From: Candidatus Poribacteria bacterium
GTDB lineage: Bacteria > Poribacteria > WGA-4E > PCPOR2b
DNA length: 64,000 nucleotides
Direction: 5' to 3'
Assembly (NCBI GenBank): GCA_965208325.1
Contig: OZ242326.1
Location: 1,376,001 to 1,440,000, forward strand
Shown piece by piece: positions 6,046-29,129 of the stretch; within the stretch, counting starts at the first letter, position 1, and every line of letters starts with the position of its first letter. The translations under genes and the position numbers were made by a program. The notes beneath the pieces are model-generated. The model was not told the DNA's origin. It was given only the letters and a program-made list of their open reading frames with translations, and did not search any database.

Positions 6046-6060
6046 TGGCATGAAATATGC
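6046..6060 (+). promoter_or_regulatory. Putative sigma54 (-24/-12) promoter
   Basis: TGGCAT-GAAAT-ATGC (GG-N10-GC), 75 nt upstream of ATG 6136. Confidence 0.6.
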
Positions 6061-6135
6061 GTGTTACTTTTAGACATGTTAAAGAATATAGTGACTACAT
6101 CTTACGTTTCGATCTATCAAAATTCGGACTAAGTT

Positions 6136-8523
6136 ATGAAACGCTTAATTTTACTGTTTCCATTTTTTGTTTCACTGATTATTTGCATAGATGGCCGTTC
6201 CGAATTGCCTCACCAGTTTCTGTTTGGGCATACACATCGCGTGCTTGCGATTGATTTCAGCCCAGATGGGCAGTGGCTTGCCTCCGGCGGCGATGGTGAA
6301 AATAACAAATATGAAATTTACATTTGGGATGCCGCGACAGGCGACCACATCTATACGCTTAACGGGCACACCGGCCAAATAATGGACCTTGCTTTCCGGA
6401 ATAATGGCAATCTTGCATCGGCTTCTGTAGACGGAAGTCTGCGGTTATGGGACGTTGGCGCGCAAGAAGAGATTCGCCAGTTTTATGGACAACAGGACGG
6501 GTTGACATCAGTAGCTTTTTGCTCTGAGGGAAAATGGCTGGCTGCGGGTTCGATTGATAAGGTGCTCAGATTATGGGAAGTTGATACTGGCCGGCTAATT
6601 TCGACTTTAGAAGGACATGGCGCTACCATCTGGGCCGTAGCATTCAGTCCCGATGGCGAAAGGATAGCATCCGCGTCAGAAGACCGAACTGTTCGTCTTT
6701 GGAATGCTCCGGACAGCGATGGAAACCTGATAAATCAAACACCGACCAATATCTTTACCGGACATACAAACCGCGTTTGGTCTCTGGCATTTCACCCTAA
6801 TAAAAATCTGGTTGCTTCAGGGTCATGGGACCACACAGTGCGCGTTTGGGATGCTAATGCAAGCAGCGAGGAAGCTGTCTTTCAGTCCCCCTTCGCAATG
6901 TACAATCGCGAAGTACTTTCGCTTGGCTTTAGTCCGGAAGGGAGATTGCTAGCGGTAGGGTTGCGCCACGTCGAGAACGACAACCCGCTAAAACTGTTGG
7001 ACTTCACATCGGGCAGCACACTCAGATCGTTCGACTCGAAATCGCGGCATGCATTGGACTTTAGTTTCGATGGATTTCGATTGGCCACCGCGGGAGCAGT
7101 TGATGGCACAATAATCATATGGAACTCCAGCCATTTGACCCCTACGCTTAACCATCCCGATGACGGCGATCTCATTGAAACGGCGCAAATTACCCTAAGT
7201 TGGGAGGCAGTCGAAGACTCGGTTTATTACGATGTTGAAATCTCCGACAATCCAGACTTTATGGAGGAGACTAAACTAAAAACGGTTACAGAAAGCCAGT
7301 TTGACTTTGAAGTCAACGGAGAAACACCAGCCTATTGGTGGCGTGTCCGTGCGGGCAGCCTCGGACAGGTCGGCGAATGGTCTGAACCTAGGTCGTTTAG
7401 CATACCGTTTGAACCACCCCTTACCTGCGACGTTTTAATCCTGCCGCCGCGCCGCCAAGTAAATTTGGGGGAGGAGTTTCATATAGAAGTTAAAATTCAT
7501 TCTGCAATAGATCTCGCAGGATTTCAGTTTGATCTTCAATGGACGAATCCCAATGTTCTCAATCTAGTCACGGTTACCGAATTCAGGAATATTTTTGGTG
7601 AATTTGGGCGTGGCAAAGCCGTTGATATTAATCGGGATCTGGGCGTGTTCAGAGATGTTGTTGCAACCAAACTTGGCGCAGGTGGTGTGAGCGGAAGCGG
7701 CACGCTGTTAAAAATGTTGTTCAGTGGCAAAGGCATCGGCACAAGTACCATTCGATTAAATAATCTCAAACTTGTCAACTCGGCAGGGGAACAGATTCAC
7801 TGTAATATTTACAACTCACAGATTGAGGTCGCAGATCCAGCAAGACCGTGGGATGTAAATGGAGACGGAATTGTTGACGTTTTCGATCTCAGCACGGTTG
7901 CGAAATACTTTGGAAAAGAAATTACTGTGGATTTGGGGCTGAATCCTGACGTCAACAGTGACGGAGTTGTCGATCTCAAGGACATAGTTCTTGTTGGAAA
8001 CTACATTGGTGAATCCTATCTGATGGACGGACAAGGAACCTCTGCTGCACCGCATTTCCACCAGACGAAGGAAGTGTACATAGCATCCCGCCATCGACCG
8101 ATTTTATTACCAAAAACACGCAATGCGCTAGAACGTATCTACACAATTTTGCAGCACAGTCCTGATAATTCTTTACCATTTGTTCGTACAAGACAGGTTT
8201 TACGTCATCTGTTGTCATCGGTTTCGCCTAGCCAAGATATATTATTTCAAAACTATCCGAATCCGTTCAATCCGGAAACATGGATTCCTTTCCAGCTTGC
8301 CGCAGACGGGGATGTGACAATCATAATTCACGATGTTAATGGAACACTAGTCCGTAAACTTGCGTTGGGCCATGTCGAAGCTAGTTCGTACATCAGGCGA
8401 ACTGATGCGGCCTATTGGGATGGGAGGGATCGATGGGGTGAACCTGCCGCCAGCGGTGTATATTTCTACACCATCTCAACGCGGTCATTCAAGGCTACTC
8501 GGGCTATGACGATTGTGAAATAA
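6136..8523 (+). CDS. Secreted WD40 + Fn3-like + cohesin + dockerin protein with T9SS-A/FlgD-like C-terminal domain
   Basis: Signal peptide; about 7 GH...WD repeats; cohesin-like DLAGFQFDLQW...GSGTLL; duplicated dockerin loops DVNGDGIVDVFDL / DVNSDGVVDLKDI; LFQNYPNPFNPETWIPFQL...YWDGRD...SGVYFY tail. Confidence 0.85.
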   Translation: MKRLILLFPFFVSLIICIDGRSELPHQFLFGHTHRVLAIDFSPDGQWLASGGDGENNKYEIYIWDAATGDHIYTLNGHTGQIMDLAFRNNGNLASASVDGSLRLWDVGAQEEIRQFYGQQDGLTSVAFCSEGKWLAAGSIDKVLRLWEVDTGRLISTLEGHGATIWAVAFSPDGERIASASEDRTVRLWNAPDSDGNLINQTPTNIFTGHTNRVWSLAFHPNKNLVASGSWDHTVRVWDANASSEEAVFQSPFAMYNREVLSLGFSPEGRLLAVGLRHVENDNPLKLLDFTSGSTLRSFDSKSRHALDFSFDGFRLATAGAVDGTIIIWNSSHLTPTLNHPDDGDLIETAQITLSWEAVEDSVYYDVEISDNPDFMEETKLKTVTESQFDFEVNGETPAYWWRVRAGSLGQVGEWSEPRSFSIPFEPPLTCDVLILPPRRQVNLGEEFHIEVKIHSAIDLAGFQFDLQWTNPNVLNLVTVTEFRNIFGEFGRGKAVDINRDLGVFRDVVATKLGAGGVSGSGTLLKMLFSGKGIGTSTIRLNNLKLVNSAGEQIHCNIYNSQIEVADPARPWDVNGDGIVDVFDLSTVAKYFGKEITVDLGLNPDVNSDGVVDLKDIVLVGNYIGESYLMDGQGTSAAPHFHQTKEVYIASRHRPILLPKTRNALERIYTILQHSPDNSLPFVRTRQVLRHLLSSVSPSQDILFQNYPNPFNPETWIPFQLAADGDVTIIIHDVNGTLVRKLALGHVEASSYIRRTDAAYWDGRDRWGEPAASGVYFYTISTRSFKATRAMTIVK

Positions 8524-8626
8524 CTCTGCTCGCGAACTTCCGATTCGCAGGTTTTCACATAGAAATTCAGTACTTCCTCTCCATTTTAGCGGGGTCCGGT
8601 GGATTAGCGCAGTAACACATGCCAGT

Positions 8627-11600
8627 ATGACGGGACGATGCTCCATGTATTATAGGTTACGGCGACAATCTATCAAATATACCTTATTCGCAGTTTGGCT
8701 TTTGAACTTCTTCGAGTTTTGCCTTTTGCCCGCGCCCGCCCAACAGACCTTCCAATGGCGCAGCTTCACACGAATCCACGATGGACTCAGCAGCAACAAT
8801 GTTCGGTCGATCGCAGAAGACAGCTTCGGACAGATTTGGCTTGCGACGAGCAGCGGTTTGAGTTGTTTCAATGGTTTCTGGCATGTAATTGAAGTTTCAA
8901 TCGGCGATTCGAGCAGTAGTGATATTAATCATATTTTTAGCGATATAGATGGGTTCATCTGGGTGATGACTAGTGGGGGCGTCTTTCAAGGGATGCCGCG
9001 CAATGGCGGGATGGATTGGGTGCATCACTACACTACGGCTGATGGGTTAATCGACAATTCGATTACGGCAGCCGTGCGGCGCCAGAATGGCGAGATTTGG
9101 GTTGGAACGCCTTCTGGCGCCAACTGGTTCGATGGGAACAGGTGGCGTGCTGCGCCAAATGCTGAAGAAGGCAGTGTTAACAAAGGCGTACGTGTCGTTT
9201 ATGAAGATAAAATGGGTAATTTGTGGTTTGGGCTTTCACGGCCAAACCGCCCTTACTTAGTTAGCCGTTTTGACGGCGCCGAGTGGGAGGTTTTCCGTAT
9301 TGAGGACGGATTGCCGAACGGCGATGTAGAAGCGATTACATCCGATCCCTTGAACAACATTTGGGTCGGAACGACTGAGGGGGCAGCGATTTACGACGGT
9401 ACAACTTGGCAGATTATAACTTCGCCGGAACTAATCGGCAACAACGTCCAGTCCATAAAAATTGACGTTGAAGAAACAGTGTGGATTGGCACCAGCGTGG
9501 GAATCAGCTTGTTCAGCCGCGGAAGATGGAGGCATTTGACAAAGGGACACGGGTTGGCGAGCAACAATATCCAGACGCTGTTTGAATCACGGGACGGTGG
9601 AATTTGGGTGGGCACACGAGATAACGGTGTCAGTTTCACCGATAGATTGTGGAGATCGATTACGACAAATGACGGATTGAGTGATAACCAAGTGACATCA
9701 ATGTTGACGGATGGCGGCGGGACAACGTGGGTAGGCACTCGCAACGGATTGGTTCGGTATAGCGGCAGGAAAATCGAATCGGTAGAAGAGCTACTGGGGC
9801 GCGACATACGCGTGCTCGCCGAAGACGCCGAGGAGCGCCTTTGGGTCGGTACAGACTCGGGCATTGTGGTATTTAGTCCAATAATTGCGGATGAGCCTTC
9901 CATATGGCGGCATTTTCGGAGAGCGGATGGGCTAAAAAATGACAGCGTTCAATCTTTGGCCGTTGACGCAGCGGGTGATGTTTGGGTGGGTACAGGAATT
10001 TTGCTTGCCGATGAACCGGGCTTCTTCCCCGGTCTAGATCGATTTGATGGTGACCAATGGCATGCTGAAGAAGACATTTTTCAGGAATTCGGCGAAATAG
10101 TCGCCGTGATGTATTCAGATTCACGAGGGCGTCTGTTTTTTGGCACTGTTGGCGACGCTGCAAGCGATGGCGAGTTGTGGGTTTACCATGGAGGAATTTT
10201 GAACCGGATCAGCCCTAATATTAGCGGATCCATCAATGCTATTATGGAATCTTCCGACGGCAGCATATGGATTGGGACAAGTGATGGCATCCTAATTTTA
10301 GATGGAGAAGCGCTGCAGCAGACGAATCGACTGACGACTGATGATGGATTGGTAGATAACCGTGTACAAGCGCTATTCCGGGATGAACCCGATAGAATGT
10401 GGATTGGCACGGTTGATGGGGTCAGTCTGTTTCAGACCAATCGATTTGCGCGCTCAATCACGGCAAGCGACGGTTTAAACAGCAATAACATCTCCGTCAT
10501 CATCAAACCGGCTGATGGCGTGCTCTGGTTTGGGAGTAAGGATAACGGCGGCGTCAGCCATTTTAATCAGGAGATGATACCGCCAACCACGCGCATAATC
10601 GAAGGTCCCACAAACGGTGAAATTGTTGGAGATACGAGCGTTATCTTTAAGTTTGAAGGAGGAGATCTTAGCACGCCAACCCGAGAACTACGCTATCGAT
10701 ACAAACTTGATGGCAACCTACCAATGCCTACCGATGACGACGGTTTTTCGAATCGTGTTTCGCTGACAGGCCTGGCGGAAGGCGGCCATCGATTCATCGT
10801 TCAAGCGATAGATCGAGAGGAAAACCTGGATCGGCTTGGTGCGCAGGCAGAATTTATTATCGATTCGAAACCGCCAACTGTTCTAATAACCAATCCGAAG
10901 CGCGGCGCGGTCATCAAGGGAGTTTATGGAATCGAGGGTAGCGCGACCGATATGGATTTTCACGATTACGAGATTCAGATTTCGGGTCAATCTGTGTTCA
11001 CCTCAAACCAACCTGTGGACAGAAATACGCTCTATCGGTGGGATACGCAAACCGTACCTGACGGCACATACAATATTCGGCTCACAGCGAGAGATACACC
11101 AAACGGCGACTATGACCGCGAACATCGCGCCGAGGAGATGATATCCGTCGAAGTAGACAACACCTTACCCGGTGCAAAAATTAAGCAGCCGTTACCTGAA
11201 GCTACAGTTACCGGAGAAACCGAGGTTGAAATTGAACTGACCGACCTTCATCTGATGAGCTATCGGTTAGAATTCACACGTGCGGCATCGAAAACTGACA
11301 CGCCGGAAGAGATTACATCGGGTTCAATCTCCGACAGCCCATTATCTATTGTGAAACAGGTACCGTGGAATTCATCAACCGTGTATGGCCATGTAATGCT
11401 TCGGGCAGCAGTTGCAGATGCAGCCGGAAACGAAGGGGTGTCAGAAGTTGTTCCCATTTTCCTCGACAATGAAGGCGCTAAGCCAGTTGTTGAGATTCAT
11501 CGGCCGAATGGAATTAATCCGATCTCGAAGGAAACAGCCGTTACCGCAACAGTCGGCGTTGGCACAGCGCCCGACACCTTTATTGAAAACATAAGCCTCG

Positions 11601-14050
11601 AATACCGACGTGTAGATGACCTCCAGGGTTGGAAGCCGCTGCGCGGCGGCCGTCTAACTTTGAATAACGAAGAGATTACACGATGGGACACTACTGCGCT
11701 CCCTGACGGCGAATATCTGTTACGACTATCCGCAAAGGACAGCAATGGATATTCGTCAAATTTCGAACGGAAGGTGTTTTTGGATAATACGCCGCCGACG
11801 GGCATCATCAGATTCCCGCAAGATGGGGATGTTCGAAAAGCCGAACGTATAGACGTAATTGGTACGGCGACGGATGAAAATTTCGAAGGCTTCGAGCTAG
11901 AATATTCTGTAAATGGCGAAACATGGATACTGATTCCAGGATTGAACACCTCGGTTGAATCGGAACGACTGGGAAGCTGGAACGCGGCAGCCTTACCCGG
12001 CGGCGCTTATCTGCTGCGTCTCACAGTCGTCGACAAGGCGGGTCTAGAAACAACGACAGAGGTAAGCGTGGTACTTGATGACTCGGATGTTATTTCGTTA
12101 ATTACCTCACCTAAGCAAGATGCATACGTCAGCGGTCAAGTAAGAATTACGGGCACAGCTAACGATCCAAATTTTAATCGATTTCATTTGGAATATCGGC
12201 TTGCAGGCGTAAATGGTGCATGGCGGCCAATTCCAGACCTATTCAGTCCCGATAAACCGAAAGAAAACGAACCTCTCGCAGATTGGAATACGCCTCAGCT
12301 CGATGAGAAATACGAAGTCCGATTGACGGCTTTCGACGATTCGGGAAAGAGTGAAACCCACATCGTTCCGGTGCATGTTGATAATCTTAAGCCAAGCGCA
12401 CATATTATCAAGGTTCAATCGCGGCATGCGGAATCTCAAGCTTCGGGGATACTATCGGGTGAAATCGAAATTTTCGGTGAAGCAACCGATGTCCACTTCA
12501 AAGACTTTCGCCTAGATTTTCGCCCTACCGATTACAGCGGCGATTGGCAACCGATTCCCGTGCTGAATTCCACAAGACCTCGACGGAACACGACACTCGC
12601 TATTTGGAGGAATACGCCCCAAATTGACGGCGAGTACGAAATTCGCTTGGAAGTTGAGGATAAATCGGGCAAGTCAAATCCGGCTTTTATGCGCGTTGAA
12701 ATTGACAACCAATCTCCGATTGTTGAAATCTCTCAGCCTAGTCATCGCCAGTTGGTGTTCACCACCATTGAAATTATCGGTACGGCGAGCGATAAATATC
12801 TCGAAGCCTATCAACTAGATTTCAGAGCAGAGGGGACCGCCGAGTGGCAGCAGATAATTCGCGCTACCCATCCCAAGGAAGCAGCGGTATTGGGAGAATG
12901 GGAACCCCCGATGGTAGACGGCGGGTATGAAATCCGCTTGCGCGCTTTCGATTTTGATGGGTCAAGGCAGCCGAGTGAGTCAATCGTACAGGTCCTCGTC
13001 GATAGGTTGCCGCCGCAAGCCGAAATACACTCTCCTACGGCGAATCAACAGCTACCCCGAAAGGTTGACATTCTGGGAACAGCGGACGATCTGAATTTCA
13101 ATGGGTACGTTATCGAATACAGCGGCGGGCAATCACCCGATATCTGGCGGCCGATATCCAAAACGGGGTTTTTGAAGCCGGTGAACGAAGGGCTCCTGGC
13201 AGAATGGAGTGTCCCGGAATTATCGTCTGGCGAGTATTCTTTGCGGTTGCGTGTAGAGGATGGCGCCGGCCATGAGAGCGCCACGTCTGTCAAGGTGTTT
13301 TTCCGCGAGCGCGTGGAGCGCCAAAATAATAGTGTTGTGCAGAGTGAAGATGGAATCGCCAGAATTGTTTTCCCGCCAAACAGCTTGCCAGAATCGACGT
13401 ACGTGACTATAAATCCAGTTCAATCTGCGAATGGGCCGTCCTCAGCCTCCAGCGATGAGATGTTGAACGGCGGCGGATCGCCGAATGTCATTCCGCGCTT
13501 CGATACAATCTACAATTTTGAACCGGCAAATTTGCAACTTCACCGCCTTAAACCTGCAACGATAGAGTTTGCCGTGCAAGAACTTACACCGGCCATGCGA
13601 AATGAAGCATTAACAATTTCTCACTGGGATGGCGCGCGGTGGAAACCCATCGGCGGCACAATCAATGAGCGGCAGGGCACGATTTCGACTGTTGTATCAG
13701 GTTTAGGGCAGTACGCCGTAACAACAGCACCTCCTGTGGAAATTGACGGCGACGTAATCATCGCTGACTTAACCTGCCAACCGCGCCTCTTTTCGCCAAA
13801 CAAAAACGAATCAACATCAATCTCGTTTCGATTAAATCAACCTAGCAATGTCACGGTGCGAATCTACAATGAGGCAGGACGGCTGCGGCGGAATCTAAGA
13901 GAATCAGAACAGCTTTCAACGGGGCGGCATGTCTTTTGGTGGGATGGGCGCGACGACGATATGCGGCGGGTTGTCAGCAACTTTTACATTGTTACGGTTG
14001 AAGCTGAAGGAGCGTTAGCGCGAAAAGCCGTTATCGTACAGAACAATTAG
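8627..14050 (+). CDS. Giant secreted protein: two-component-regulator propeller repeats + Y_Y_Y-like domain + about 8 tandem Ig-like repeats + FlgD-Ig-like C-terminal domain
   Basis: Many GL(S/P)xNxVxxIxxDxxGxIWVGT repeats; LRYRYKLDG...GHRFIVQAID; eight roughly 100-aa repeats (IxxP...GTAxDxxF...LAxW...GxYxIRL...VxVDN); PRLFSPN...VRIYNEAG...WWDGRD tail. Exact start uncertain. Confidence 0.85.
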   Translation: MTGRCSMYYRLRRQSIKYTLFAVWLLNFFEFCLLPAPAQQTFQWRSFTRIHDGLSSNNVRSIAEDSFGQIWLATSSGLSCFNGFWHVIEVSIGDSSSSDINHIFSDIDGFIWVMTSGGVFQGMPRNGGMDWVHHYTTADGLIDNSITAAVRRQNGEIWVGTPSGANWFDGNRWRAAPNAEEGSVNKGVRVVYEDKMGNLWFGLSRPNRPYLVSRFDGAEWEVFRIEDGLPNGDVEAITSDPLNNIWVGTTEGAAIYDGTTWQIITSPELIGNNVQSIKIDVEETVWIGTSVGISLFSRGRWRHLTKGHGLASNNIQTLFESRDGGIWVGTRDNGVSFTDRLWRSITTNDGLSDNQVTSMLTDGGGTTWVGTRNGLVRYSGRKIESVEELLGRDIRVLAEDAEERLWVGTDSGIVVFSPIIADEPSIWRHFRRADGLKNDSVQSLAVDAAGDVWVGTGILLADEPGFFPGLDRFDGDQWHAEEDIFQEFGEIVAVMYSDSRGRLFFGTVGDAASDGELWVYHGGILNRISPNISGSINAIMESSDGSIWIGTSDGILILDGEALQQTNRLTTDDGLVDNRVQALFRDEPDRMWIGTVDGVSLFQTNRFARSITASDGLNSNNISVIIKPADGVLWFGSKDNGGVSHFNQEMIPPTTRIIEGPTNGEIVGDTSVIFKFEGGDLSTPTRELRYRYKLDGNLPMPTDDDGFSNRVSLTGLAEGGHRFIVQAIDREENLDRLGAQAEFIIDSKPPTVLITNPKRGAVIKGVYGIEGSATDMDFHDYEIQISGQSVFTSNQPVDRNTLYRWDTQTVPDGTYNIRLTARDTPNGDYDREHRAEEMISVEVDNTLPGAKIKQPLPEATVTGETEVEIELTDLHLMSYRLEFTRAASKTDTPEEITSGSISDSPLSIVKQVPWNSSTVYGHVMLRAAVADAAGNEGVSEVVPIFLDNEGAKPVVEIHRPNGINPISKETAVTATVGVGTAPDTFIENISLEYRRVDDLQGWKPLRGGRLTLNNEEITRWDTTALPDGEYLLRLSAKDSNGYSSNFERKVFLDNTPPTGIIRFPQDGDVRKAERIDVIGTATDENFEGFELEYSVNGETWILIPGLNTSVESERLGSWNAAALPGGAYLLRLTVVDKAGLETTTEVSVVLDDSDVISLITSPKQDAYVSGQVRITGTANDPNFNRFHLEYRLAGVNGAWRPIPDLFSPDKPKENEPLADWNTPQLDEKYEVRLTAFDDSGKSETHIVPVHVDNLKPSAHIIKVQSRHAESQASGILSGEIEIFGEATDVHFKDFRLDFRPTDYSGDWQPIPVLNSTRPRRNTTLAIWRNTPQIDGEYEIRLEVEDKSGKSNPAFMRVEIDNQSPIVEISQPSHRQLVFTTIEIIGTASDKYLEAYQLDFRAEGTAEWQQIIRATHPKEAAVLGEWEPPMVDGGYEIRLRAFDFDGSRQPSESIVQVLVDRLPPQAEIHSPTANQQLPRKVDILGTADDLNFNGYVIEYSGGQSPDIWRPISKTGFLKPVNEGLLAEWSVPELSSGEYSLRLRVEDGAGHESATSVKVFFRERVERQNNSVVQSEDGIARIVFPPNSLPESTYVTINPVQSANGPSSASSDEMLNGGGSPNVIPRFDTIYNFEPANLQLHRLKPATIEFAVQELTPAMRNEALTISHWDGARWKPIGGTINERQGTISTVVSGLGQYAVTTAPPVEIDGDVIIADLTCQPRLFSPNKNESTSISFRLNQPSNVTVRIYNEAGRLRRNLRESEQLSTGRHVFWWDGRDDDMRRVVSNFYIVTVEAEGALARKAVIVQNN

Positions 14051-14053
14051 CGA

Positions 14054-16210
14054 GTGACATCCGTTTCAATGATATGGACTTCCAAAACTGTCTTGACAAA
14101 ACCGGGGACACTTCGCATAATATCCACGATGCGATGCTGTTTTTTTATAATCTTCATGTTCACGTCGGCGAGTGCAATTTACGCCCTCGAAGAAAGAGCG
14201 TCTACCGGCGTGCGTGCCATCGGCATGGGAGAAGCGTTTATCGGTGTCGCCGACGATGAGAACAGTGTTCGCAGAAATCCCGCGGGACTTGTCCGATTGG
14301 ACAGATACGCCCTCGGATTTGAACAGACGCCATCGAAGTTGTTCGGTGTGTTGGAAACCAACTGTCTCAGCGCAGTCTTGCCAGCGTCGGAAAAAATTGC
14401 GTTGGGTATGGATTGGACCCAAGTCGGGATTGTGGATGAAGAACTCGATTCAAGGCGCAGCAGTTTTAACTTCTCCTACAGCTACTATCCATTGTCCCTA
14501 CTGTCGATTGGGGCAAACCTGAAATACCTGACATGGGGCATTACGCTCGATAAGCAATCTGAAGGCAACGCCACCGGATGGGGAACGGACGTTGGCGTAC
14601 TTCTTCAACCAAACCGCAGTTGGACATTTGGATTCTTGGTGCAGGATTTTATCGGTTTTGGAGCTGGACATGGCTTTAGCCGCGACACATGGATGCGCCA
14701 CGACACCGGGGTAAGCGAAAGAGTATTCCCGACAAGGTATAAACTGGGAGCGGCTTATCGGCCCATACCCAATTGGCTCATTGCCGCGGATGTCACGGAC
14801 CGCATCCATGTGGGTGCAGAGTTTCTGCCATACGCCAATTTTGCTATTCGCGCCGGAATCCAAAAAGATTTGGCATCGCTTGAATGGCCGAGTTATTCGT
14901 TGGGTGGACGCGTAACATATCGATGGTTGGATTTCAACGCCGCGTATCTCATTCCCCCAACCCTGCCGCCAACAGTTTATGTTGGTCTTTCGCTCAACAT
15001 AGATTTTCGGCGGTTGCCGGTGCGGATTGAGCAGGTTCGTATAAAAGACCTCTATCCGGTCCATTATAATTACTACGCTTCGCCAAATAGGGAGGTGGAA
15101 ATCATTTTTTTGGAGGAGCCTATCACGCCGCCGGTTTTCACTGACGCCGACCGGGATCGGTACTATCCACTAATGCCGCTAGATTCAATCGGCAGGATCT
15201 GGCTAAAAAATGAGAGTAACAAACCGGTGACTGTCAGGATTGAACTGTTTATTGAACAGTTTGTCGGCCAAGACGGCACGGTAGTTGCATCTGATATTGA
15301 ATTGGAACCCTTAAAGCGGGTTTCTGTGCCAATGCGCCAGCTCGTTTTATCACGCGACGCCCTAGCGTTAACCCAAGCACAGCCTGTCGAAGCGAGAGTC
15401 AAAGTCATCGAGAGCGGTGGAAGTGCATACCGGACTGACACTGTCACTTTAACGTTACACGGCAACCATACAACACGGCTGGATGATGTCGCCAAACTCG
15501 GATCATTCATCTCCTCTGAAGATGCGGCAATTCAAGCCTTTATAAATTCCATTCGTACTGTATTTAACGACAGGATTGCATCAAACACGGTTCCGCGCAA
15601 TTTGTATACGGCTATGCTATTGTTTAACGCCTTGCATGGGGTGTCTTATGCGATTGATCCGAATATACCGGGTGCAAGCGGCACCATAGACGAGATCAAA
15701 TACCCCTTCGAGATGCTCGAACGCCTCAAGGGGCAATTCAGCGGGGATGGCGGAGTTCATGCTTTCGGAGATTGCGACGACAGTACGGCGCTATATTGTT
15801 CGCTGCTAGAATCGGCCGGGATACAGACAGCACTCATCCAGCTTCCTAACCATGTGATGATGGCGTTCGATTTGGGGCAAATTTCTCTCGATTGGGCGGA
15901 AGCGGTAGATTTGCCTGATAGTCACTATCAGCCCATTAACGGGCAGGTTTGGATTCCCATTGAGACAACGCTTATCAAAGACGGATTCATCGCGGCGTGG
16001 CAAACGGCAATTGAAGAAATTCGAGCAAAAGGGGTTATTGACTCGTCTACGGTTGAAGACGCCTGGGCGAAATACGGAGCGAGTTCCTTGCGCGGAGCGG
16101 AAAGACACTTTTCTGTTCCTGAAACTCGAATTAGATCGCGGATAGACGGCGATTTAGCACATCCGTGGTTTCAGGGTTTTTTGGAATTTTTCTCTCAGGC
16201 GCCACCATAG
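14054..16210 (+). CDS. PorV/PorQ-like outer-membrane beta-barrel fused to a transglutaminase-like domain
   Basis: GVRAIGMGEAFIGVADDENSVRRNPAGL (PorV/FadL-like start) and alternating beta-strands; C-terminal GDCDDSTALYCSLLESAGI...NHVMMAF...WIPIETT. Likely start ATG 14129. Confidence 0.75.
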   Translation: MTSVSMIWTSKTVLTKPGTLRIISTMRCCFFIIFMFTSASAIYALEERASTGVRAIGMGEAFIGVADDENSVRRNPAGLVRLDRYALGFEQTPSKLFGVLETNCLSAVLPASEKIALGMDWTQVGIVDEELDSRRSSFNFSYSYYPLSLLSIGANLKYLTWGITLDKQSEGNATGWGTDVGVLLQPNRSWTFGFLVQDFIGFGAGHGFSRDTWMRHDTGVSERVFPTRYKLGAAYRPIPNWLIAADVTDRIHVGAEFLPYANFAIRAGIQKDLASLEWPSYSLGGRVTYRWLDFNAAYLIPPTLPPTVYVGLSLNIDFRRLPVRIEQVRIKDLYPVHYNYYASPNREVEIIFLEEPITPPVFTDADRDRYYPLMPLDSIGRIWLKNESNKPVTVRIELFIEQFVGQDGTVVASDIELEPLKRVSVPMRQLVLSRDALALTQAQPVEARVKVIESGGSAYRTDTVTLTLHGNHTTRLDDVAKLGSFISSEDAAIQAFINSIRTVFNDRIASNTVPRNLYTAMLLFNALHGVSYAIDPNIPGASGTIDEIKYPFEMLERLKGQFSGDGGVHAFGDCDDSTALYCSLLESAGIQTALIQLPNHVMMAFDLGQISLDWAEAVDLPDSHYQPINGQVWIPIETTLIKDGFIAAWQTAIEEIRAKGVIDSSTVEDAWAKYGASSLRGAERHFSVPETRIRSRIDGDLAHPWFQGFLEFFSQAPP

Positions 16211-16436
16211 AACACAATCGGGTGCAATTGGTTTGTAGGTTGATTTTTGGCCAAGTTGATGTGCGGCGCCCGGAACGGTTAACACCGTACGAACAGTTTT
16301 TGAATTACCCGCTCTAGCCAACTCACAAAGACTACCATAAATTGTCTATCCCCCAGCAGAACTGCGGGTGATTGTTGATTTCCATGTGGCGTTACGTTAG
16401 CCACACATTTTTTTACACCAAAGGAGGACAACTACC

Positions 16437-17336
16437 ATGAAGCGAAAATACCCTATTCTTCTCACAATTTGCTGCTTGTTCGTGATTGCGGCTAATCCCG
16501 ATTCGCAGGCAGAAGATACGGTAACCGCCACATTCACCTTTGGAAAGATTGAGGTGCTTAAATCCGGTGAACGGGAATGGGCTTTTTTGGAAAAAGGTGC
16601 GGTCTTGAACAACAGTGATCTCGTGCGTATGCCGCCGTACTCGTTAATTCGGCTAAAGGATGCGGACGAGATGCTTTTACCGACGCTTCCGGGCGGGCGT
16701 GAACTGCCTATCAGCGTTTTAATCGAGGAGGGGCGCCTACGTAGGAATGAATTCAAAGGCAAGCGTGTTAGTGCGCCATTTGACAGCCGCCCTACAATTG
16801 ATGTGCTGCCGCTTGGCAACAGACCAAAAGGGGAAAACCGCTTCAAGGCACCTGCCGCAGCTCAACCAACGCCACTAATGCGGGGTGAACTGGAAGCGCT
16901 TCGCCGCGAACTCGACTCGCTTCCTGAAGAATTTGTGCCTTTCATCTCTCGAAGTCTCCTGCCGGATAATCATGCGACGACAGATGCGTATCCCAGCACC
17001 AATCTATCTGGCGCGCTTACCCTTTATCGCGACACGCTCAGAGAAATTGAGGCGAAAACGGAAGCGACTTCAAATCGTTCGCTCTTGTACGCCCAACTGC
17101 TTGGCCGGATTGAGATTGGTGCAGATCTTGTCGTGAACGGCAAGGGGGACCTTTTCGTTGTGTTTGATAGCGGTGTTCCCGTCAATGGGAGTAAACAGAT
17201 TACCGCCAATCATCAGCTCATTCATCATAAATCGGGGACAGATACCGTTTGGATTCCTCTTCAGATTACGCCTCGTCGACATAATTTCACAACCGCATGG
17301 TATACAGCCGGACGGAACCTGGAGGCCGGACTATAG
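16437..17336 (+). CDS. Exported protein with FecR-like N-terminal domain and degenerate transglutaminase-like C-terminal domain
   Basis: AAGGAGG RBS and signal peptide; GKIEVLKSGEREWAFLEKGAVLNNSDLVRM (FecR-like); C-half aligns by eye with the TGase domain of 14054..16210. Confidence 0.65.
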   Translation: MKRKYPILLTICCLFVIAANPDSQAEDTVTATFTFGKIEVLKSGEREWAFLEKGAVLNNSDLVRMPPYSLIRLKDADEMLLPTLPGGRELPISVLIEEGRLRRNEFKGKRVSAPFDSRPTIDVLPLGNRPKGENRFKAPAAAQPTPLMRGELEALRRELDSLPEEFVPFISRSLLPDNHATTDAYPSTNLSGALTLYRDTLREIEAKTEATSNRSLLYAQLLGRIEIGADLVVNGKGDLFVVFDSGVPVNGSKQITANHQLIHHKSGTDTVWIPLQITPRRHNFTTAWYTAGRNLEAGL

Positions 17337-17408
17337 TAGTGGAAAATAATCGGTTGATATGGACATGCTAGGAAAAACAGATACACTAGGTCTGTTTGGA
17401 GGTTCGTT

Positions 17409-19427
17409 TTGTTCCGCGTTTTCCCCGATACGCATCAATTTATGTCCTTCAAATGGGTTCGTGTACAGAAAACATATCTGCTCATCGCGTCCGTGAGCCT
17501 CTTGCCGTTTATGGTAATGGGGCTGTTGCGCGAGTTTGAACTATTTGAGTTTATAGAACTACAAACACTAGATGGACGGTTACGCTTGCCGTCTATACAA
17601 CGACCGCAAATTTCTCGCCAAATTTCGCTCATTACGATTGATGCTGAAAGCGAAGAAATTATTCAGCCGCTCCCGTGGCCGCCTCCCATTTATGCTTCGC
17701 TGCTAAACTACCTTCAAGAAGCGAATCCCAAGGCAATTGGCTTAATCGCTTGGTTCAACCGCGAATGGCCGGGGGATCAACACATCCCCCGTGATAAATT
17801 GTTCGCCATCCGACCTTATACATCAGTAAGCAACACCGGAAATCGACGTGCTTTTCCGGAGGTCACGAATTGGAACCAGTTGCCTCCCAGCTTGCAAAAC
17901 GCGCAAGACTCAAGTTTCAGCGAGTTTGCCTTGAACCGTTCCGATGGTATCTACCGTTCAGCCCAACTCGTCGTCAAACAGGCCGCGGAAGAGGAATACC
18001 GCTACTCTCTCGAAATGTTAATTCTGTGTCAAATCCATGGCGTTCCAGTAACATCAATAAAGGTCAAAGAAGATTTTTGGAGCGGTAAATTTCTACAATT
18101 GTCACGTCCGTCCGGCGCACCAATTCGGATTCCTATTGATTTGCAAGGCAGGCTGTTCCTGAGATTTGCCGGAGACATTTCCGATTTTCAACCCACCTCG
18201 TTCATTAAAGCATTAACCCAGTCTGAATCAGACATGCCGGGATTCCGGCAGAAATTTGAGGGGAAATCAGTCCTAATCGGCATTACAACGGTTAGCGCCC
18301 CGCAGGCTTCGACGCCATTCGGAAAAATGTCTGCACTCGCACTCCGCGCGAACTTGCTTAACGCCCTGCTGAATCAAGATTTTATCCGGCGGTTGAGCGG
18401 CAAGGCAAACCTTCTCTATCTAGCATGTTTTGGTATCGCTGCCGCTATGGCAACCGTTCTCATCAGCAGAACCGGACAGAGCTACAGATTGATGTTACTC
18501 ATCGCATGTGGATTGCTGTTCCTGCATTTCCTTATTGCTTTTGCAATGATTGTGCTATACAACATTTGGATTGAGTTAACTGGAACCAGCCTCGCCCTTA
18601 TCCTGTGCGGTGTAGGGAGCAGCTTTTTCCTAGCGCATTTTCGACTGCGTCAGCTTTTCTCGCAGTTACAGACGACGCGGGAAGAACTTGTCAGAGCCGA
18701 AAAAGAAGCAGTTTTTGGAGTGATGTCCGCGCGGGTACGGCACGAACTGCGAAATGCCCTGAACCTAGTTCGTGCACCTGCAGAGATGATTCGAAACAAT
18801 TTCCAGAAACAAGATCCCTTGAAATTACGGGACCGCCCTGAAGAAATCATCGGCGAAATGGATGGAATCATTGACCGGGTTACAAAACTGGATGAAATGA
18901 TTGAAAATGAACTCAGCTTCTTTCAAAACACACAGTACAATCTTCAACAGCAAGAACTAGGGCCGATTCTGAAATCTGCGTCGGAGATGGTGGAACCGTT
19001 GATTACCGACAAACAAATTAATGTACAGTGGAATTATCCAAGTGACACGCGGAAACTCTCCGTTGACGCTGACAAAATGCGAATCGTCTTCGCGAACCTA
19101 ATAAAAAACGCTTGCCAAGCTATGACGAAGGGCGGCGAATTAGAAATCGCCATTGAAACACCGTACGAATCTTCCTCAAAATCCGTAACCTCCGTCCTAA
19201 TCAGGGATACCGGGGCTGGCATCCCCCCCGATGAACTAGAGCGGATTTTTGAGCCTTTTTACACGACAAAACCGCGTGGATTGGGGCTCGGATTGGTTAA
19301 TGTCAAGAATATTGTCGAGGGACATGGGGGAGAGGTACGTGTGGAAAGCGTAGTCGGCACCGGAACGACATTCTTGATCCAACTACCTGCAGTTCAAGAA
19401 AAGGAGAAAACGTCAATGGGGACATGA
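17409..19427 (+). CDS. CHASE2-domain sensor histidine kinase
   Basis: N-terminal TM; ELQTLDGR...ISLITIDAES...WP, DGIYR, KSVLIG, TPFG (CHASE2 motifs); three TMs; RHELRNAL H-box; NLIKNA, DTGAG, FYTTK, GLGLGL. Confidence 0.9.
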   Translation: MFRVFPDTHQFMSFKWVRVQKTYLLIASVSLLPFMVMGLLREFELFEFIELQTLDGRLRLPSIQRPQISRQISLITIDAESEEIIQPLPWPPPIYASLLNYLQEANPKAIGLIAWFNREWPGDQHIPRDKLFAIRPYTSVSNTGNRRAFPEVTNWNQLPPSLQNAQDSSFSEFALNRSDGIYRSAQLVVKQAAEEEYRYSLEMLILCQIHGVPVTSIKVKEDFWSGKFLQLSRPSGAPIRIPIDLQGRLFLRFAGDISDFQPTSFIKALTQSESDMPGFRQKFEGKSVLIGITTVSAPQASTPFGKMSALALRANLLNALLNQDFIRRLSGKANLLYLACFGIAAAMATVLISRTGQSYRLMLLIACGLLFLHFLIAFAMIVLYNIWIELTGTSLALILCGVGSSFFLAHFRLRQLFSQLQTTREELVRAEKEAVFGVMSARVRHELRNALNLVRAPAEMIRNNFQKQDPLKLRDRPEEIIGEMDGIIDRVTKLDEMIENELSFFQNTQYNLQQQELGPILKSASEMVEPLITDKQINVQWNYPSDTRKLSVDADKMRIVFANLIKNACQAMTKGGELEIAIETPYESSSKSVTSVLIRDTGAGIPPDELERIFEPFYTTKPRGLGLGLVNVKNIVEGHGGEVRVESVVGTGTTFLIQLPAVQEKEKTSMGT

Positions 19428-19504
19428 GTGCATCGGTTCATAGCATTCAAAATGTACCGTTTGAGCTATGGATCCTTGGACTTGCGCTTCGCGTTTAACG
19501 ATAC

Positions 19505-20950
19505 ATGAATCCATCACGCATTTTAATTGCAGACGACGAACACGCAACCTGCAGCTACATCGACAAACAGATCAAAATGGAATCGTCGATTGATGTTACG
19601 GTGGACTTTGCCTACGACCGGGACGAGGCAATGGCGCTATTGACAGGCAATTCCAACTATAATCTAATTATAGTCGATCTCTGGATGCCGGATGCAGGAG
19701 GCATTTTAGATAGAGAAGCGGGGTTGAAAATCCTTAAACACAGTAAATCTCGGCACCCGGCACCGCAGGCAATCGTCATCACCGCGAACATTTCGTCGAA
19801 GACTGCGCTTGAAGCGAGCGGTTTAGGCATCTACGACTACATCAGCAAGCCAATTGACTACACCCACCTAATTAACATCATCAAGGGGGCGTTAAATCAA
19901 AGCAACAGCGATGCGCTTGATTGGGAGCCTTCCTCTACCGCGCATTTAGAAGAAACCGATGCCCACGAAATCGTCGGCAGCAGTAACGCGATGATTGAGG
20001 TGATGAAAAAGGTTGGGAAAGTTGCGCTTTCGGACGTTGATGTCTTAATCTATGGAGAGAGCGGTACCGGTAAGGAATCCGTAGCGCACGCCATTCATGC
20101 GCTCAGCCCTCGCGCGAAAGGGCCATTCATAGTTATGAACTGCAGCGCCATTCCGGCGGAATTAATCGAAGCGGAATTATTCGGGATAGGGAAACGGGTT
20201 GCAACAGCCGTTGACCAACGTCCGGGGAAATTTCAGCAGGCGGATGGCGGCACAATTTTGCTCGATGAGATTGGTGATTTGGACCTTGCCATGCAACCCA
20301 AGCTGTTGCGCGTACTAGATTCGAAGGAACTTCAGGGAATCGGGATGGATGTTCACCGTGTCAATGTGCGCGTTATCGCCGCTACCAATCGAGATCTCCG
20401 CGCGGCAGTGGAAGCAGGTAGCTTTCGAAGCGATCTCTATTATCGCCTGAAATTCATGATTACTTTACCTCCGCTGCGTGAGCGCGAGGGCGACATTCGG
20501 ATGCTTGCATCGTATTTCCTGAATAAGTTTCTGCGCCTGCCGGAATCGGGGCAAATCCGCGGATTTGACGAGACTGTCTTGTCGGCGTTTGAGCGGTATC
20601 AATGGCCAGGCAATGTCCGTGAATTGGAGAAAGCCGTTCAATATGCGGTTGTCACTTGTACAGGAAATCAGATATTGCAAGAAGATTTACCCCCTGAAAT
20701 CTTCAGTGCGCCAGAAGTAGAAACGCTCGGGTTGCTCCCAGACCGGGACACTACTCCTATACGCAGCTTACTCAACGTCCCAACAATTAAGGATGCCACC
20801 CAAGGCTTCGAGAAAATCTTTCTGGAACACAAACTCAAACAGAATAACTGGAACGTCCGGGCAACTGCCCTACAAATTGGAATCAAGCGCCAGTCATTGC
20901 ACCGCAAAATTAAGGAGCTCGGTCTGAAGCGAAACGAAAATCAGACGTAA
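19505..20950 (+). CDS. NtrC-family (sigma54-type) response regulator: REC-AAA+-Fis HTH
   Basis: IADDE / VDLWMP receiver; GESGTGKE; LLDEIG; LYYRL; WPGNVREL; C-terminal HTH. The L1 loop reads RVATAV instead of GAFTGA. Confidence 0.92.
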   Translation: MNPSRILIADDEHATCSYIDKQIKMESSIDVTVDFAYDRDEAMALLTGNSNYNLIIVDLWMPDAGGILDREAGLKILKHSKSRHPAPQAIVITANISSKTALEASGLGIYDYISKPIDYTHLINIIKGALNQSNSDALDWEPSSTAHLEETDAHEIVGSSNAMIEVMKKVGKVALSDVDVLIYGESGTGKESVAHAIHALSPRAKGPFIVMNCSAIPAELIEAELFGIGKRVATAVDQRPGKFQQADGGTILLDEIGDLDLAMQPKLLRVLDSKELQGIGMDVHRVNVRVIAATNRDLRAAVEAGSFRSDLYYRLKFMITLPPLREREGDIRMLASYFLNKFLRLPESGQIRGFDETVLSAFERYQWPGNVRELEKAVQYAVVTCTGNQILQEDLPPEIFSAPEVETLGLLPDRDTTPIRSLLNVPTIKDATQGFEKIFLEHKLKQNNWNVRATALQIGIKRQSLHRKIKELGLKRNENQT

Positions 20951-21046
20951 GCCCAGGCGATGCATTATTGACCACCATCTAGGACGCTACGACAATAGAC
21001 ATCATTCCTAATTTACTCAATGTGGTTGACAAAACCGAAGCGTTAC

Positions 21047-21071
21047 GGGCAACCACAAGGGTTGCCCCTAC
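21047..21071 (-). repeat. GTAG-family REP-like palindrome
   Basis: Minus strand reads GTAG-GGGCAACC-CTTGT-GGTTGCCC, a perfect 8-bp stem after GTAG. Confidence 0.65.
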
Positions 21072-21103
21072 AGCGTATTAGCCCAACGTGAGGGTAGTCG
21101 TTT

Positions 21104-21179
21104 TACACCTGCCGCCCCGCTGGGGTTAGATGTTGATGTGTAACAGTGACTTCTATATACCTGTCGCCCCTTTGGAGCT
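21104..21179 (+). repeat. Tandem 24-bp intergenic repeat pair (period 52)
   Basis: TACACCTGCCGCCCCGCTGGGGTT (21104) and TATACCTGTCGCCCCTTTGGAGCT (21156); the same module occurs inverted at 44624-44699. Confidence 0.65.
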
Positions 21180-21347
21180 ATCGGGCGGTGGAATAATTTT
21201 GGGAAGATGTCTAATACAAAAAATTCCAATTCGTTGGCTTACAAAACCGTTCATGTGATTTTTTTAGAGTGCTCTATTGCATTTAAAACGAAGATAGGGC
21301 GGTGTTAAAGGAAGCAGTCTGCATGACGACCCAATCCTGCATCCCAA

Positions 21348-21384
21348 TGTCGCTTCAGGGCGACAGTGTAGTTTATGGGTGACA
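21348..21384. promoter_or_regulatory. Tandem TGT-N12-ACA palindromes, putative enhancer (UAS) for an NtrC-type activator
   Basis: TGTCGC-TTCAGG-GCGACA (21348-21365) followed by TGTAGT-TTATGG-GTGACA (21367-21384), 140-180 nt upstream of a -24/-12 promoter. Confidence 0.55.
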
Positions 21385-21525
21385 GAAATTCGAAATCAAA
21401 TGCGATTACAGCCGGCTGATGATGGCAGGTTGAAAATGGTATAGAATCGCTGTTTTGCGCCTAATGTAGAACATCCAACCTAATTTCACTTTTTTTTATT
21501 CATTTTCGAAGCCGCCGTCTATCGC

Positions 21526-21540
21526 TGGCACACATCTTGC
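21526..21540 (+). promoter_or_regulatory. sigma54 (-24/-12) promoter of the sigma70-family gene
   Basis: TGGCAC-ACATC-TTGC, a full match to TGGCAC-N5-TTGC, preceded by an A/T tract (about 21481-21506) and 78 nt before ATG 21619. Confidence 0.8.
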
Positions 21541-21618
21541 CTATGTAATTCAATGAAATCCTTCTCCTACCAGAACTTATGACCGAATATCATCATTGAT
21601 ACAGGAGCGGCTCGATAG

Positions 21619-22827
21619 ATGAATCAATCATCTCAAATCTCCGCTGAAGCGTCCGTTAAAAATTGGTCACCACAATTTGAATCTGTGCCCGCAGATTTGG
21701 GTATACAACCGGAATCTTTTGCACAAGCATCAAATATAAGTCCGGAGCAAGACGCCGTTGCAACGGAGGATGCGGATGGGGCCATTAGACCACCCTTGGA
21801 TTCCGACTGCGAGAAAGACGCGCGCGGCGGCGTTCTGCACACGTATCTTTCCCAGATGGGAGATTACGCGCGTTTGACGCAAGACGAAGAATTAGGTATC
21901 TTTTTCAAGATAGAGAAGTATCGCAAGCGCATCAATGAATGCTATGAAGAATTGATGACATTTCCGCTCGAGATAGATGCGGAAGATTTGCCAAGCCCGC
22001 GCTCGTTGAAAAAATTGATTGCCGCTAAATCTTTTGTTCCGCCCACACAAGAGTTCCTTTTGGAACTTGTGGGACATATCCAATTTCTGCAAGCGGAAAT
22101 CCACACTGCCAAAAACCGTGTTGTTGAGGCTAACCTGAGATTGGCGGTCTGTATTGCCAAGAAATACCAAGAGCGCGGACTAGATTTGCCTGATCTCATT
22201 CAGGAGGCAAATATCGGGTTGATTAACGCTGTCGATCACTTTGATTGGCGGCGCGGTGTGAAGTTTAGCGCGTGCGCTTCTTGGTGGATTCAGCAAGCCA
22301 TCGGGCGCAGCATTGCAAATCATGGGCGGACGATTCGCATCCCGTCGCACCTACTCAGCGACATTAGTAAAGTGAATCGTGCGAAAGCACGTTTTTTTCA
22401 AAACACCAACCGTGAACCCAATCCAAAAGAAATCTCTGAAGCAACCGGGCTTTCAGCCAAAAAGATAACGGAATTGAATCGGATTTCGGCGGATTCCATG
22501 TCCCTGGAAGACTGCATTAGTCCAGACACGGGCGGTGAAGTTGAAGTGCTAGTTCCATGCGAACAAGCATCGGATCCCCTAACGGGCGTGATTACGAAAA
22601 GCCTAATTGAAGAGGTTAATCTGGCAATCGGCGCATTGCCGCCCCGTGAGAAACAGATTGTCTTTTTGAGATACGGTCTAGAAAACAGCGAAGAACACAG
22701 TTTACAGGAAATAGGGATGATGTTGAACCTGTCACGAGAACGGGTTCGGCAATTGGAAGCCAGGGCGTTGAGTCGGCTGCGCCATCCCTCTCGGAGCGAT
22801 AGACTGAACGATTTCCTCTTTTCGTAA
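21619..22827 (+). CDS. RpoD/RpoS-like alternative sigma70 factor (regions 1.2-4)
   Basis: YLSQMGDYARLTQDEE (1.2), VEANLRLAVCIAKKY, DLIQEANIGL, WWIQQAI, RTIRIP, LQEIG...LSRERVRQLE; AGGAG RBS. Confidence 0.9.
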   Translation: MNQSSQISAEASVKNWSPQFESVPADLGIQPESFAQASNISPEQDAVATEDADGAIRPPLDSDCEKDARGGVLHTYLSQMGDYARLTQDEELGIFFKIEKYRKRINECYEELMTFPLEIDAEDLPSPRSLKKLIAAKSFVPPTQEFLLELVGHIQFLQAEIHTAKNRVVEANLRLAVCIAKKYQERGLDLPDLIQEANIGLINAVDHFDWRRGVKFSACASWWIQQAIGRSIANHGRTIRIPSHLLSDISKVNRAKARFFQNTNREPNPKEISEATGLSAKKITELNRISADSMSLEDCISPDTGGEVEVLVPCEQASDPLTGVITKSLIEEVNLAIGALPPREKQIVFLRYGLENSEEHSLQEIGMMLNLSRERVRQLEARALSRLRHPSRSDRLNDFLFS

Positions 22828-29023: not shown

Positions 29024-29129
29024 ACAACTTCGCTCAGTTGAACGTTCAAAGGTTTACAGCAGGGCAATATATTTACGGTTTCTACATAAACCAAAATTTT
29101 AGGTCACGGAGGTGAACCACCCGCCGCAC

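Follow-up and report, generated by a model that had tools for sequence, protein, structure and literature searches.

A seven-gene cluster of Candidatus Poribacteria predicted to link the cell envelope to an alternative sigma factor

A seven-gene cluster conserved among Poribacteria

We analysed a stretch of 64,000 nt (hereafter, the window) from the 4.7 Mb, single-contig genome of a Candidatus Poribacteria bacterium, the proteins related to those of the window being likewise named Candidatus Poribacteria, and focused on seven genes arranged head to tail between positions 6136 and 22827 (Table 1). They encode two propeller proteins with tails of the type IX secretion system (T9SS) type (genes 1 and 2), an outer-membrane barrel fused to a transglutaminase-fold domain (gene 3), a periplasmic adaptor with a dead version of that domain (gene 4), a CHASE2 sensor histidine kinase (gene 5), an NtrC-family response regulator (gene 6) and an RpoD-like sigma factor (gene 7). 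The initial annotation had described seven co-directional genes that supply a component for every compartment from surface to cytoplasm. All seven open reading frames (ORFs) were recovered on the + strand and the domain identities stood, but the labels 'FecR' for the adaptor and canonical 'NtrC-type sigma-54 activator' for the regulator had to be dropped.

Table 1. Genes and promoter-type elements of the cluster, in window coordinates (aa, amino acids; Ig, immunoglobulin).
Feature	Position	Strand	Description	Basis
Gene 1	6136..8523	+	WD40 propeller, dockerin and T9SS type A C-terminal tail; signal peptide; 795 aa	Pfam, TIGR04183
Gene 2	8627..14050	+	Reg_prop propellers, Y_Y_Y, many Ig-like repeats and T9SS type A tail; 1807 aa	Pfam, TIGR04183
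Gene 3	14129..16210 (ORF opens 14054)	+	PorV/FadL-type outer-membrane barrel, Ig-like sandwich and transglutaminase-fold domain (Cys-His-Glu); 693 aa	
Gene 4	16437..17336	+	Periplasmic adaptor: signal peptide, small beta-sandwich, DxLPxG linker and dead transglutaminase-fold domain; 299 aa	
Gene 5	17409..19427	+	CHASE2 sensor histidine kinase; 672 aa	Pfam
Gene 6	19505..20950	+	NtrC-family response regulator (REC, AAA+, HTH_8) with non-canonical L1 loop	Pfam
Gene 7	21619..22827	+	RpoD-like alternative sigma factor; 402 aa	Sigma-70 regions 2, 3 and 4 (Pfam)
Predicted sigma-54 -24/-12 promoter	21526-21540	+	TGGCACACATCTTGC, 93 nt before the sigma gene	Exact consensus
Tandem dyads, candidate enhancer	21348..21384		Two TGTC-N10-GACA copies, a perfect one and one with a single mismatch, spaced 19 nt apart; they precede the sigma-gene promoter by about 160-180 nt	
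Sigma-54-type -24/-12 motif	6046-6060	+	TGGCATGAAATATGC (TGGCAT-N6-TGC), 90 nt before the first gene	Weaker match
Internal sigma-54-like motif	15274..15289	+	CGGCACGGTAGTTGCA, within the barrel gene, encoding G-T-V-V-A	Conservation

The gene order was compared among relatives. In 14 loci, the seven genes were colinear in families f1 and f3, and genes 3-7 were colinear in family f4. In a larger set of 42 species loci, titled as Candidatus Poribacteria or uncultured bacterium metagenome-assembled genomes, the barrel, adaptor and kinase genes (genes 3-5) were adjacent and colinear without exception, and genes 6-7 followed in 40, the other two being short contigs that end early. All seven genes were detected in 29 of the 42 loci, a count limited by the 10-kb flank. 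Eight class-level loci, with 25-35% protein identity, had the same order as well; in these, two barrel genes missed by tblastn were recognised by hhalign with a probability of 100%. The genes flanking the cluster are not common beyond the genus. Gene order, checked in this way, is thus conserved, and the cluster is kept as one unit across Poribacteria.

The adaptor and the CHASE2 gene had near-identical distributions among genomes of the phylum (55/176 and 57/176, respectively), though these genomes are related and non-independent, and the counts carry no statistical claim. Both were found in most of the families sampled and in 0/112 genomes of f2, the most heavily sampled family. In f4, a second barrel-enzyme paralogue (~27% identity) is located beside a Reg_prop tail protein and a WD40 gene of 1000-1100 aa (L051 7296-12828 and L052 346-11287), without kinase, regulator or sigma gene, and the barrel copy that adjoins the regulators has unrelated genes upstream. 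This duplication, with one copy in each half, links the barrel gene to both halves of the cluster. On this comparative evidence, the seven genes very likely constitute a single functional module.

Envelope proteins encoded by the cluster

Gene 1 matched WD40 (206.5 bits, Pfam) and Dockerin_1 (40 bits) behind an N-terminal hydrophobic segment at residues 1-23. Gene 2 matched Reg_prop (161.3 bits), Y_Y_Y (41 bits), Big_7 and FlgD_ig, and partially the PorZ model (74.6 bits, cut-off 260). The tails of both passed the TIGR04183 cut-off of 23 bits, narrowly (24.9 bits for gene 1 and 23.6 bits for gene 2), in line with the earlier description of the two as surface proteins bearing C-terminal sorting domains. 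Elsewhere in the genome, eight other ORFs passed the cut-off of the PorV family (NF033709), the tail part of the PorU model had over 40 additional matches, and two large ORFs matched that model more broadly, under its cut-off. A literature search combining Poribacteria and type IX secretion returned no title naming Poribacteria.

Gene 3 probably starts at the ATG at 14129, from which a signal peptide is encoded. Its structure model (pLDDT, a model confidence score, of 69.7) has three parts. The first is a barrel to which Foldseek matched FadL and PorV (6h3i_F, E 2.5e-6, target-normalised TM-score 0.53), and VIA-align of residues 27-294 gave a Z score of 16.8 to PorV 6h3i_F (root-mean-square deviation (rmsd) 3.6, 220 residues aligned) and 17.8 to a FadL homologue. 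Chains of three newly solved Bacteroidota BAM complexes (9hjm_F, 9hj3_F and 9n2d_B) matched the same residues about equally to PorV (Z 15.6-16.5), and judged from the model this barrel type may not be specific to secretion. The second part, residues 296-445, is an Ig-like sandwich (VIA-align Z 9.4). The third, residues 448-641, had as its best structural match the putative protease 3kd4_B (Z 8.4, rmsd 3.0, 131 residues aligned). Among 48 barrel proteins, D548, C549, D550 and H575 were invariant and E612, which we take by the family motif to be the third residue of the triad, was nearly so.

The PorV-transglutaminase barrel of the initial annotation thus held as to both folds, but not at the family cut-offs. 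NF033709 scored 60 bits against a cut-off of 90, over model positions 10-207 of 326, and PF01841 (cut-off 23 bits) had no direct match to the barrel protein of the window, matching 2 of 12 orthologue domains (best E 0.032). Binding of T9SS cargo tails is a candidate function of the barrel, suggested by the adjacency of its gene to two tail-bearing genes. The best sigma-70-like promoter match of the region (TTGACA-17-CATAAT, 11/12) is located at 14093-14121 and ends 8 nt before the likely ATG of the barrel gene, which is the first cluster gene in family f4.

The adaptor matched no Pfam or NCBIfam family. Comparison of orthologue profiles by hhalign aligned its residues 183-296 with the enzyme domain of the barrel protein (probability 94.5%, E 7.8e-8). 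In the adaptor copy the Cys segment is deleted and the other two triad positions are replaced, making it a pseudoenzyme. The paralogous domain that had been proposed as active in the barrel protein and dead in the periplasmic one was thereby borne out, with Cys549 and His575 invariant in the former and lost in the latter. VIA-align of adaptor residues 146-291 gave moderate Z scores in the range 5.8-3.8, to TglA (5.8), 3kd4_B (5.8), Rad4 (5.6), factor XIII (5.3), PNGase (4.9), TG2, TG3, TgpA and LapG (3.8), and 3kd4_B was the best-matching transglutaminase-fold chain common to the barrel and adaptor domains. PF01841 did not match the adaptor. The adaptor-family profile, run against 1.84 billion proteins, reached Transglut_core members that exceed the Pfam cut-off (among others P0153, 32.2 bits, and P0156, 31.4 bits), and in the nearest Atlas cluster PF01841 was present in 12% of the members. 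Going by the models, the enzyme and pseudoenzyme domains are of the transglutaminase/papain-type fold. The adaptor model had no Foldseek match in the PDB at E <= 0.001, the enzyme-domain profile had none among PDB sequences at E <= 10, and no paralogue of the enzyme domain or the adaptor was detected elsewhere in the genome of the window. Complex prediction for the enzyme domain (residues 445-693) with the adaptor (residues 27-299) scored 0.10 against a mark of 0.32 (runs 0.01, 0.51 and 0.10) and carries no weight either way.

The N-terminal domain of the adaptor (residues 26-97) had the adhesin retention domain 5ix9 as its best VIA-align match (Z 7.4, rmsd 2.5, 70 residues aligned), a score that, according to the tool, models lacking a clear match commonly reach. 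The linker behind it is modelled with low confidence and carries a nearly invariant D-x-L-P-x-G. The adaptor had been described as a FecR-pseudotransglutaminase, of which the pseudoenzyme stands and the FecR label is without any support from hidden Markov models: PF04773 matched none of 12 orthologues at E <= 10 and nothing genome-wide at E <= 1. Three profile matches confined to the N-terminal domain (P0143, P0152 and P0159) had, when scanned, no Pfam family, and no FecR-type chain was among the 50 structural matches listed for the adaptor, most of which come from its other domain.

Related domains were detected in other architectures. The enzyme-type domain occurs with outer-membrane barrels and TPR (P0163, P0174 and P0161) and with Reg_prop/Y_Y_Y and TPR (P0155, P0164, P0165, P0170 and P0173), and the whole adaptor module is found at the end of an FG-GAP/Reg_prop/Y_Y_Y protein in P0147 and P0179 (hhalign 99.5%, E 2.9e-23). 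Metagenome scans with P0147 and P0118 found no relative.

Regulatory genes and promoter-type elements

Gene 5 is the only CHASE2 match in the genome of the window (96.8 bits, cut-off 26.3). Its CHASE2 domain is flanked by hydrophobic segments at 21-44 and 333-414, and the protein has the H-box RHELRN and HATPase_c (90.7 bits). Gene 6 matched Sigma54_activat (193.9 bits), Response_reg (61.2 bits) and HTH_8 (28.6 bits), with intact Walker A (GESGTGKE) and Walker B (LLDEIG) motifs and an Asp in the context IIVDL that we take to be the phospho-acceptor. Gene 7 scored 297.5 bits against the RpoD equivalog, whose cut-off is 555, and the primary RpoD (612 aa, 600.7 bits) is encoded elsewhere, which agrees with the earlier view of the last gene as an alternative sigma-70; it is one of four extra RpoD-like sigma factors in the genome.

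The element before the sigma gene is the only exact TGGCAC-N5-TTGC in the 64 kb (0.17 expected; 16 of 100 shuffles had at least one). A comparable -24/-12 motif was present between the regulator and sigma genes in 40/40 loci, and the 7 class-level loci in which both genes occur each had a motif matching 8 or more of the 11 consensus positions. The weakest was that of L109, where the regulator gene is broken (12283-13011; a 242-aa ORF matching residues 3-245 only), and the sequence there suggests that the module may be decaying. In L068 the motif is doubled (14580 and 14604, 24 nt apart). The motif before the first gene is by itself within chance (2 matches found, 1.44 expected), and was found at the same place in 8/8 and then 16/16 loci, among the few invariant blocks in otherwise unalignable DNA. 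Both -24/-12 motifs are convincing because they are kept in relatives, as had been anticipated for promoters in front of the first and last genes, and rpoN, sought as a further check, is present in the genome. Given their GG/GC spacing, their conservation and the presence of rpoN, the -24/-12 elements are predicted sigma-54 promoters.

The tandem dyads lie between the regulator gene and the sigma-gene promoter. At least one dyad with at most one mismatch was found in 36/40 loci, a perfect one in 18/40 and a tandem pair in 19/40, against a background of 0.43 per kb elsewhere in the same loci. In another part of the genome, a pair of almost identical dyads, TGTCATATTTTC(G/C)C(G/A)TGACA, was seen 75 nt apart at G000:C1:799300 and 799375 and may be the tandem site of another regulator.

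The motif inside the barrel gene was found at the homologous place in 13/13 loci and then in 42/42 of the larger set. Of the 143 columns in which the amino acid never varies, only 2 keep the codon as well, the GGC and GTT of this motif, which shows the strongest synonymous-site conservation of the whole barrel gene. From this pattern, it could be an internal promoter or another signal at the nucleotide level.

An Rfam scan of 5000-24000 returned no match, and a terminator scan showed no enrichment (14 found, 19.2 expected); the lone 'terminator' that lies between the genes for regulator and sigma factor is in fact the dyad. Downstream of the cluster, a 981-aa ORF (24596-27541) encodes a sigma factor of the extracytoplasmic function (ECF) type (regions 2 and 4) fused to BNR/Sortilin/DUF6242 propeller-type domains, and was kept beside the cluster in one same-genus locus only. 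Two neighbouring PQQ/BamB-like beta-propeller genes (487 and 721 aa) follow on the - strand (27560-31355).

A candidate envelope-to-sigma relay and its alternatives

We favour, at somewhat better than an even chance, a reading in which the seven genes form one Poribacterial module that couples envelope state to the expression of an alternative sigma factor. With their T9SS-type tails, both propeller proteins would be exported, and a dedicated PorV/PorQ-like barrel would retain at least the Reg_prop protein, with its double propeller, at the outer membrane, in the way that PorQ retains PorZ. The Ig-like linker and the intact transglutaminase-fold domain of the barrel protein would hang into the periplasm, where the enzyme domain would work with the soluble adaptor, binding or cleaving it. 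The kinase, through its periplasmic CHASE2 domain, would then receive the signal from the adaptor and phosphorylate the NtrC-family regulator, which would bind the tandem TGTC-N10-GACA dyads and control the neighbouring sigma gene; the one promoter that can be recognised for that gene is of sigma-54 type. A relay from surface protein through barrel and adaptor to CHASE2 fits the domain logic, the gene fusions, the barrel duplication in f4 and the precedent of NsrA and CHASE2 described below. The parts of the two-component system are intact (H-box, Pfam-recognised receiver domain and Walker A/B), and, as far as sequence goes, this local system likely controls the sigma gene. The physical contacts, the direction of signalling, the identity of the signal and the capacity of the regulator for sigma-54 are what we infer.

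Several points weigh against this reading. The single surface-sensing circuit of the initial annotation survives as a conserved seven-gene unit, but its physical relay from barrel through adaptor to CHASE2 is something we can only infer. The check for T9SS core genes elsewhere in the genome turned up tails, PorV-family barrels and a divergent SprA-like ORF, but not GldM. Export of the tailed proteins is plausible and no firmer, because GldM was not found in the genome with PF12081, the GldK-type matches are of the generic sulfatase-modifying type and the SprA-like ORF (2188 aa) scored 160.6 bits against a cut-off of 200. The Reg_prop-adaptor fusions end in the adaptor module (match residues 1344-1613 of 1620), without a recognisable T9SS tail, and so fit poorly with a strictly surface-located Reg_prop sensor. 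The enzyme domain is presumed to lie in the periplasm, rather than outside, on the ground that barrel termini generally face that way. Positive feedback on the cluster's own surface proteins, also part of the earlier proposal, gained no support: a shared enhancer at the first promoter was rejected, with dyads in 1/16 loci, a background level, and no TGTC-N10-GACA dyads were found upstream of the internal motif, so that autoregulation is unsupported. Lastly, residues 228-233 of the regulator, in its L1 loop, read RVATAV (within KRVATAV) where GAFTGA is expected, and the genome has 17 enhancer-binding proteins (EBPs), any of which could drive the promoters of the cluster.

This loop bears on the alternative that survives best, to which we give a little less than an even chance: the local regulator would not activate the sigma-54 promoter but would either work with sigma-70, as an atypical EBP, or serve at the dyads as repressor or modulator, leaving the cluster's -24/-12 promoters to be driven by one of the 15 canonical EBPs. 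V-A-T occupies the loop in 48/48 orthologues of the regulator, whereas 15 of the 16 other EBPs of the genome have GAFTGA or a near-variant (GSFTGA, GAYTGA or GAFTDA). GAFTGA is described as needed for contact with sigma-54, and the characterised EBPs with GAFTGA variations that these sources name (TyrR, HupR, HsfA, PhhR, NtrX, VpsR and Caulobacter NtrC) act at sigma-70 promoters (PMC6158489, PMC12421884). With the loop reading RVATAV and such EBPs using sigma-70, action of the regulator on sigma-54 is doubtful, and the canonical activator that had been claimed is not what gene 6 encodes. Arguing against this alternative, and against plain loss of function, the variant loop shows strong conservation (V-A-T-x-V) and no decay, the Walker motifs are intact, and almost all loci have the dyads and the -24/-12 element immediately behind the regulator gene, spaced as an enhancer would be. 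The stretch from the dyads to the sigma gene showed no sigma-70-like promoter, which leaves the step from regulator to sigma gene able to be read either way. We put the chance that the gene 6 regulator itself drives the sigma-54 promoter near one half.

It is unlikely, in our judgement, that the cluster consists of two units travelling together, in which genes 1-3 would serve cargo export and attachment, and genes 4-7 would be an independent CHASE2 system and sigma cascade sensing something else. The barrel-enzyme protein would then correspond, in a single chain, to the PorV-PorU sortase pair and would cut or cross-link the propeller tails. PorU is a separate cysteine peptidase with a sortase role alongside PorV, and a barrel joined to a Cys-His enzyme resembles that pair. 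One f4 paralogue sits with Reg_prop and WD40 genes and no regulator, and the promoters of genes 1 and 7 have no common dyad element. The other f4 copy, however, stays with the four regulatory genes in the absence of cargo genes, the adaptor carries a dead paralogue of the barrel's own enzyme domain and is fused to Reg_prop proteins elsewhere, and the seven-gene order persists to 25-35% identity. An enzyme domain located outside would, moreover, have to be exported by a route of which the sequence gives no sign.

Less probable still is a LapG-type proteolytic switch, a variant of the main relay step rather than a wholly separate model, in which the barrel-tethered cysteine protease would cut the adaptor at its DxLPxG linker, or would cut the surface proteins that are tethered, releasing a fragment that would be the CHASE2 ligand, with the dead domain as only a docking or decoy module: the invariant catalytic Cys and His, the match of the adaptor N-domain to a retention domain followed by the nearly invariant linker motif, and the presence of LapG (a periplasmic transglutaminase-like protease described as cutting behind such a retention module; 10.1101/198937) among the fold matches speak for it, but the 5ix9 score is of a common size, the LapG match is weak and many other chains of the transglutaminase fold rank above it, neither a LapD-like receptor nor an RTX adhesin is present, and cleavage itself is a proposal.

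The coupling of envelope state to sigma factor expression, as we favour it, has partial counterparts among known systems. In Sinorhizobium meliloti, the outer-membrane barrel NsrA is reported to be needed for the inner-membrane CHASE2 adenylate cyclases CyaD1, CyaD2 and CyaK to perceive an external protein signal (PMC13001267). There too an outer-membrane beta-barrel feeds an inner-membrane CHASE2 receptor. The reported output is cyclic AMP, whereas the cluster has a kinase and a sigma cascade, and the description, in the parts of that report available to us, mentions no enzyme domain on the barrel and no dead-enzyme adaptor. The 'BiofilmReg' operon of Burkholderia, also found in Pseudomonas aeruginosa PAO1, is described as pairing a LysM-FecR protein with a CHASE2 kinase, and shares with the cluster a secreted accessory gene directly upstream of the kinase, in one operon with a response regulator (PMC5192318). 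As described there, its accessory protein is LysM plus FecR and its regulator of CreB/OmpR type, whereas the cluster's accessory protein is an unclassified beta-sandwich with a dead transglutaminase-fold domain. The LapA-LapG-LapD system, as its source presents it, has a transglutaminase-like periplasmic cysteine protease acting on a protein with a small N-terminal retention domain and flexible linker (10.1101/198937), but the cluster has no cyclic di-GMP receptor, type I secretion system or RTX adhesin, and the structural similarity is modest.

The PorV-PorU and PorQ-PorZ pairs of Porphyromonas and Flavobacterium resemble the cluster in having a FadL-type barrel beside T9SS-tailed propellers, a partly PorZ-like Reg_prop protein and a barrel-associated cysteine enzyme. 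The cluster differs in that its barrel is below the family cut-off, its enzyme is of the transglutaminase fold and fused to the barrel, and its genes are locked to a two-component system and a sigma factor. In the FecA-FecR-FecI system an outer-membrane protein with a periplasmic domain likewise signals through a periplasmic or inner-membrane transducer to a sigma factor; the cluster, however, has no TonB-dependent transducer, FecR domain or ECF sigma factor, its transducer being a kinase with a response regulator. Cascades from an EBP through sigma-54 to an alternative sigma factor are known in Rrp2-RpoN-RpoS of Borrelia and the flagellar FleQ/FlrA-RpoN-FliA. Here, too, the gene of a response-regulator EBP adjoins a sigma-54 promoter that would drive an RpoD-family alternative sigma gene, but the regulator is without GAFTGA and resembles the atypical EBPs that act at sigma-70 promoters. 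Literature searches returned no paper with both CHASE2 and PorV, and nothing related for CHASE2 with transglutaminase. As we read it, the cluster is a variant of trans-envelope signalling built from new parts, and the combination is not described in the literature searched.

The input of CHASE2 sensors was described as unknown in the 2016 account (PMC5192318), and a conserved module that names candidate protein partners makes this input testable. We regard as rather doubtful the more far-reaching possibility that T9SS parts work here as a signalling device, with a tail-anchored double-propeller receptor on a PorQ-like barrel and a periplasmic transglutaminase-fold arm that acts with its dead paralogue on CHASE2, and that the V-A-T loop is an alternative, working way of engaging sigma-54. 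If true, CHASE2 would gain a defined protein input. The cluster suggests that T9SS-type barrels and sorting tails are usable for signalling, beyond secretion, and in it an active transglutaminase-fold domain and its dead counterpart occur together naturally. It also places a conserved, naturally occurring GAFTGA variant next to a sigma-54 promoter and enhancer of textbook form, a clean setting in which to ask if such variants are able to drive sigma-54. Within the phylum, a module found in most sampled families and in none of the f2 genomes may mark a difference in lifestyle.

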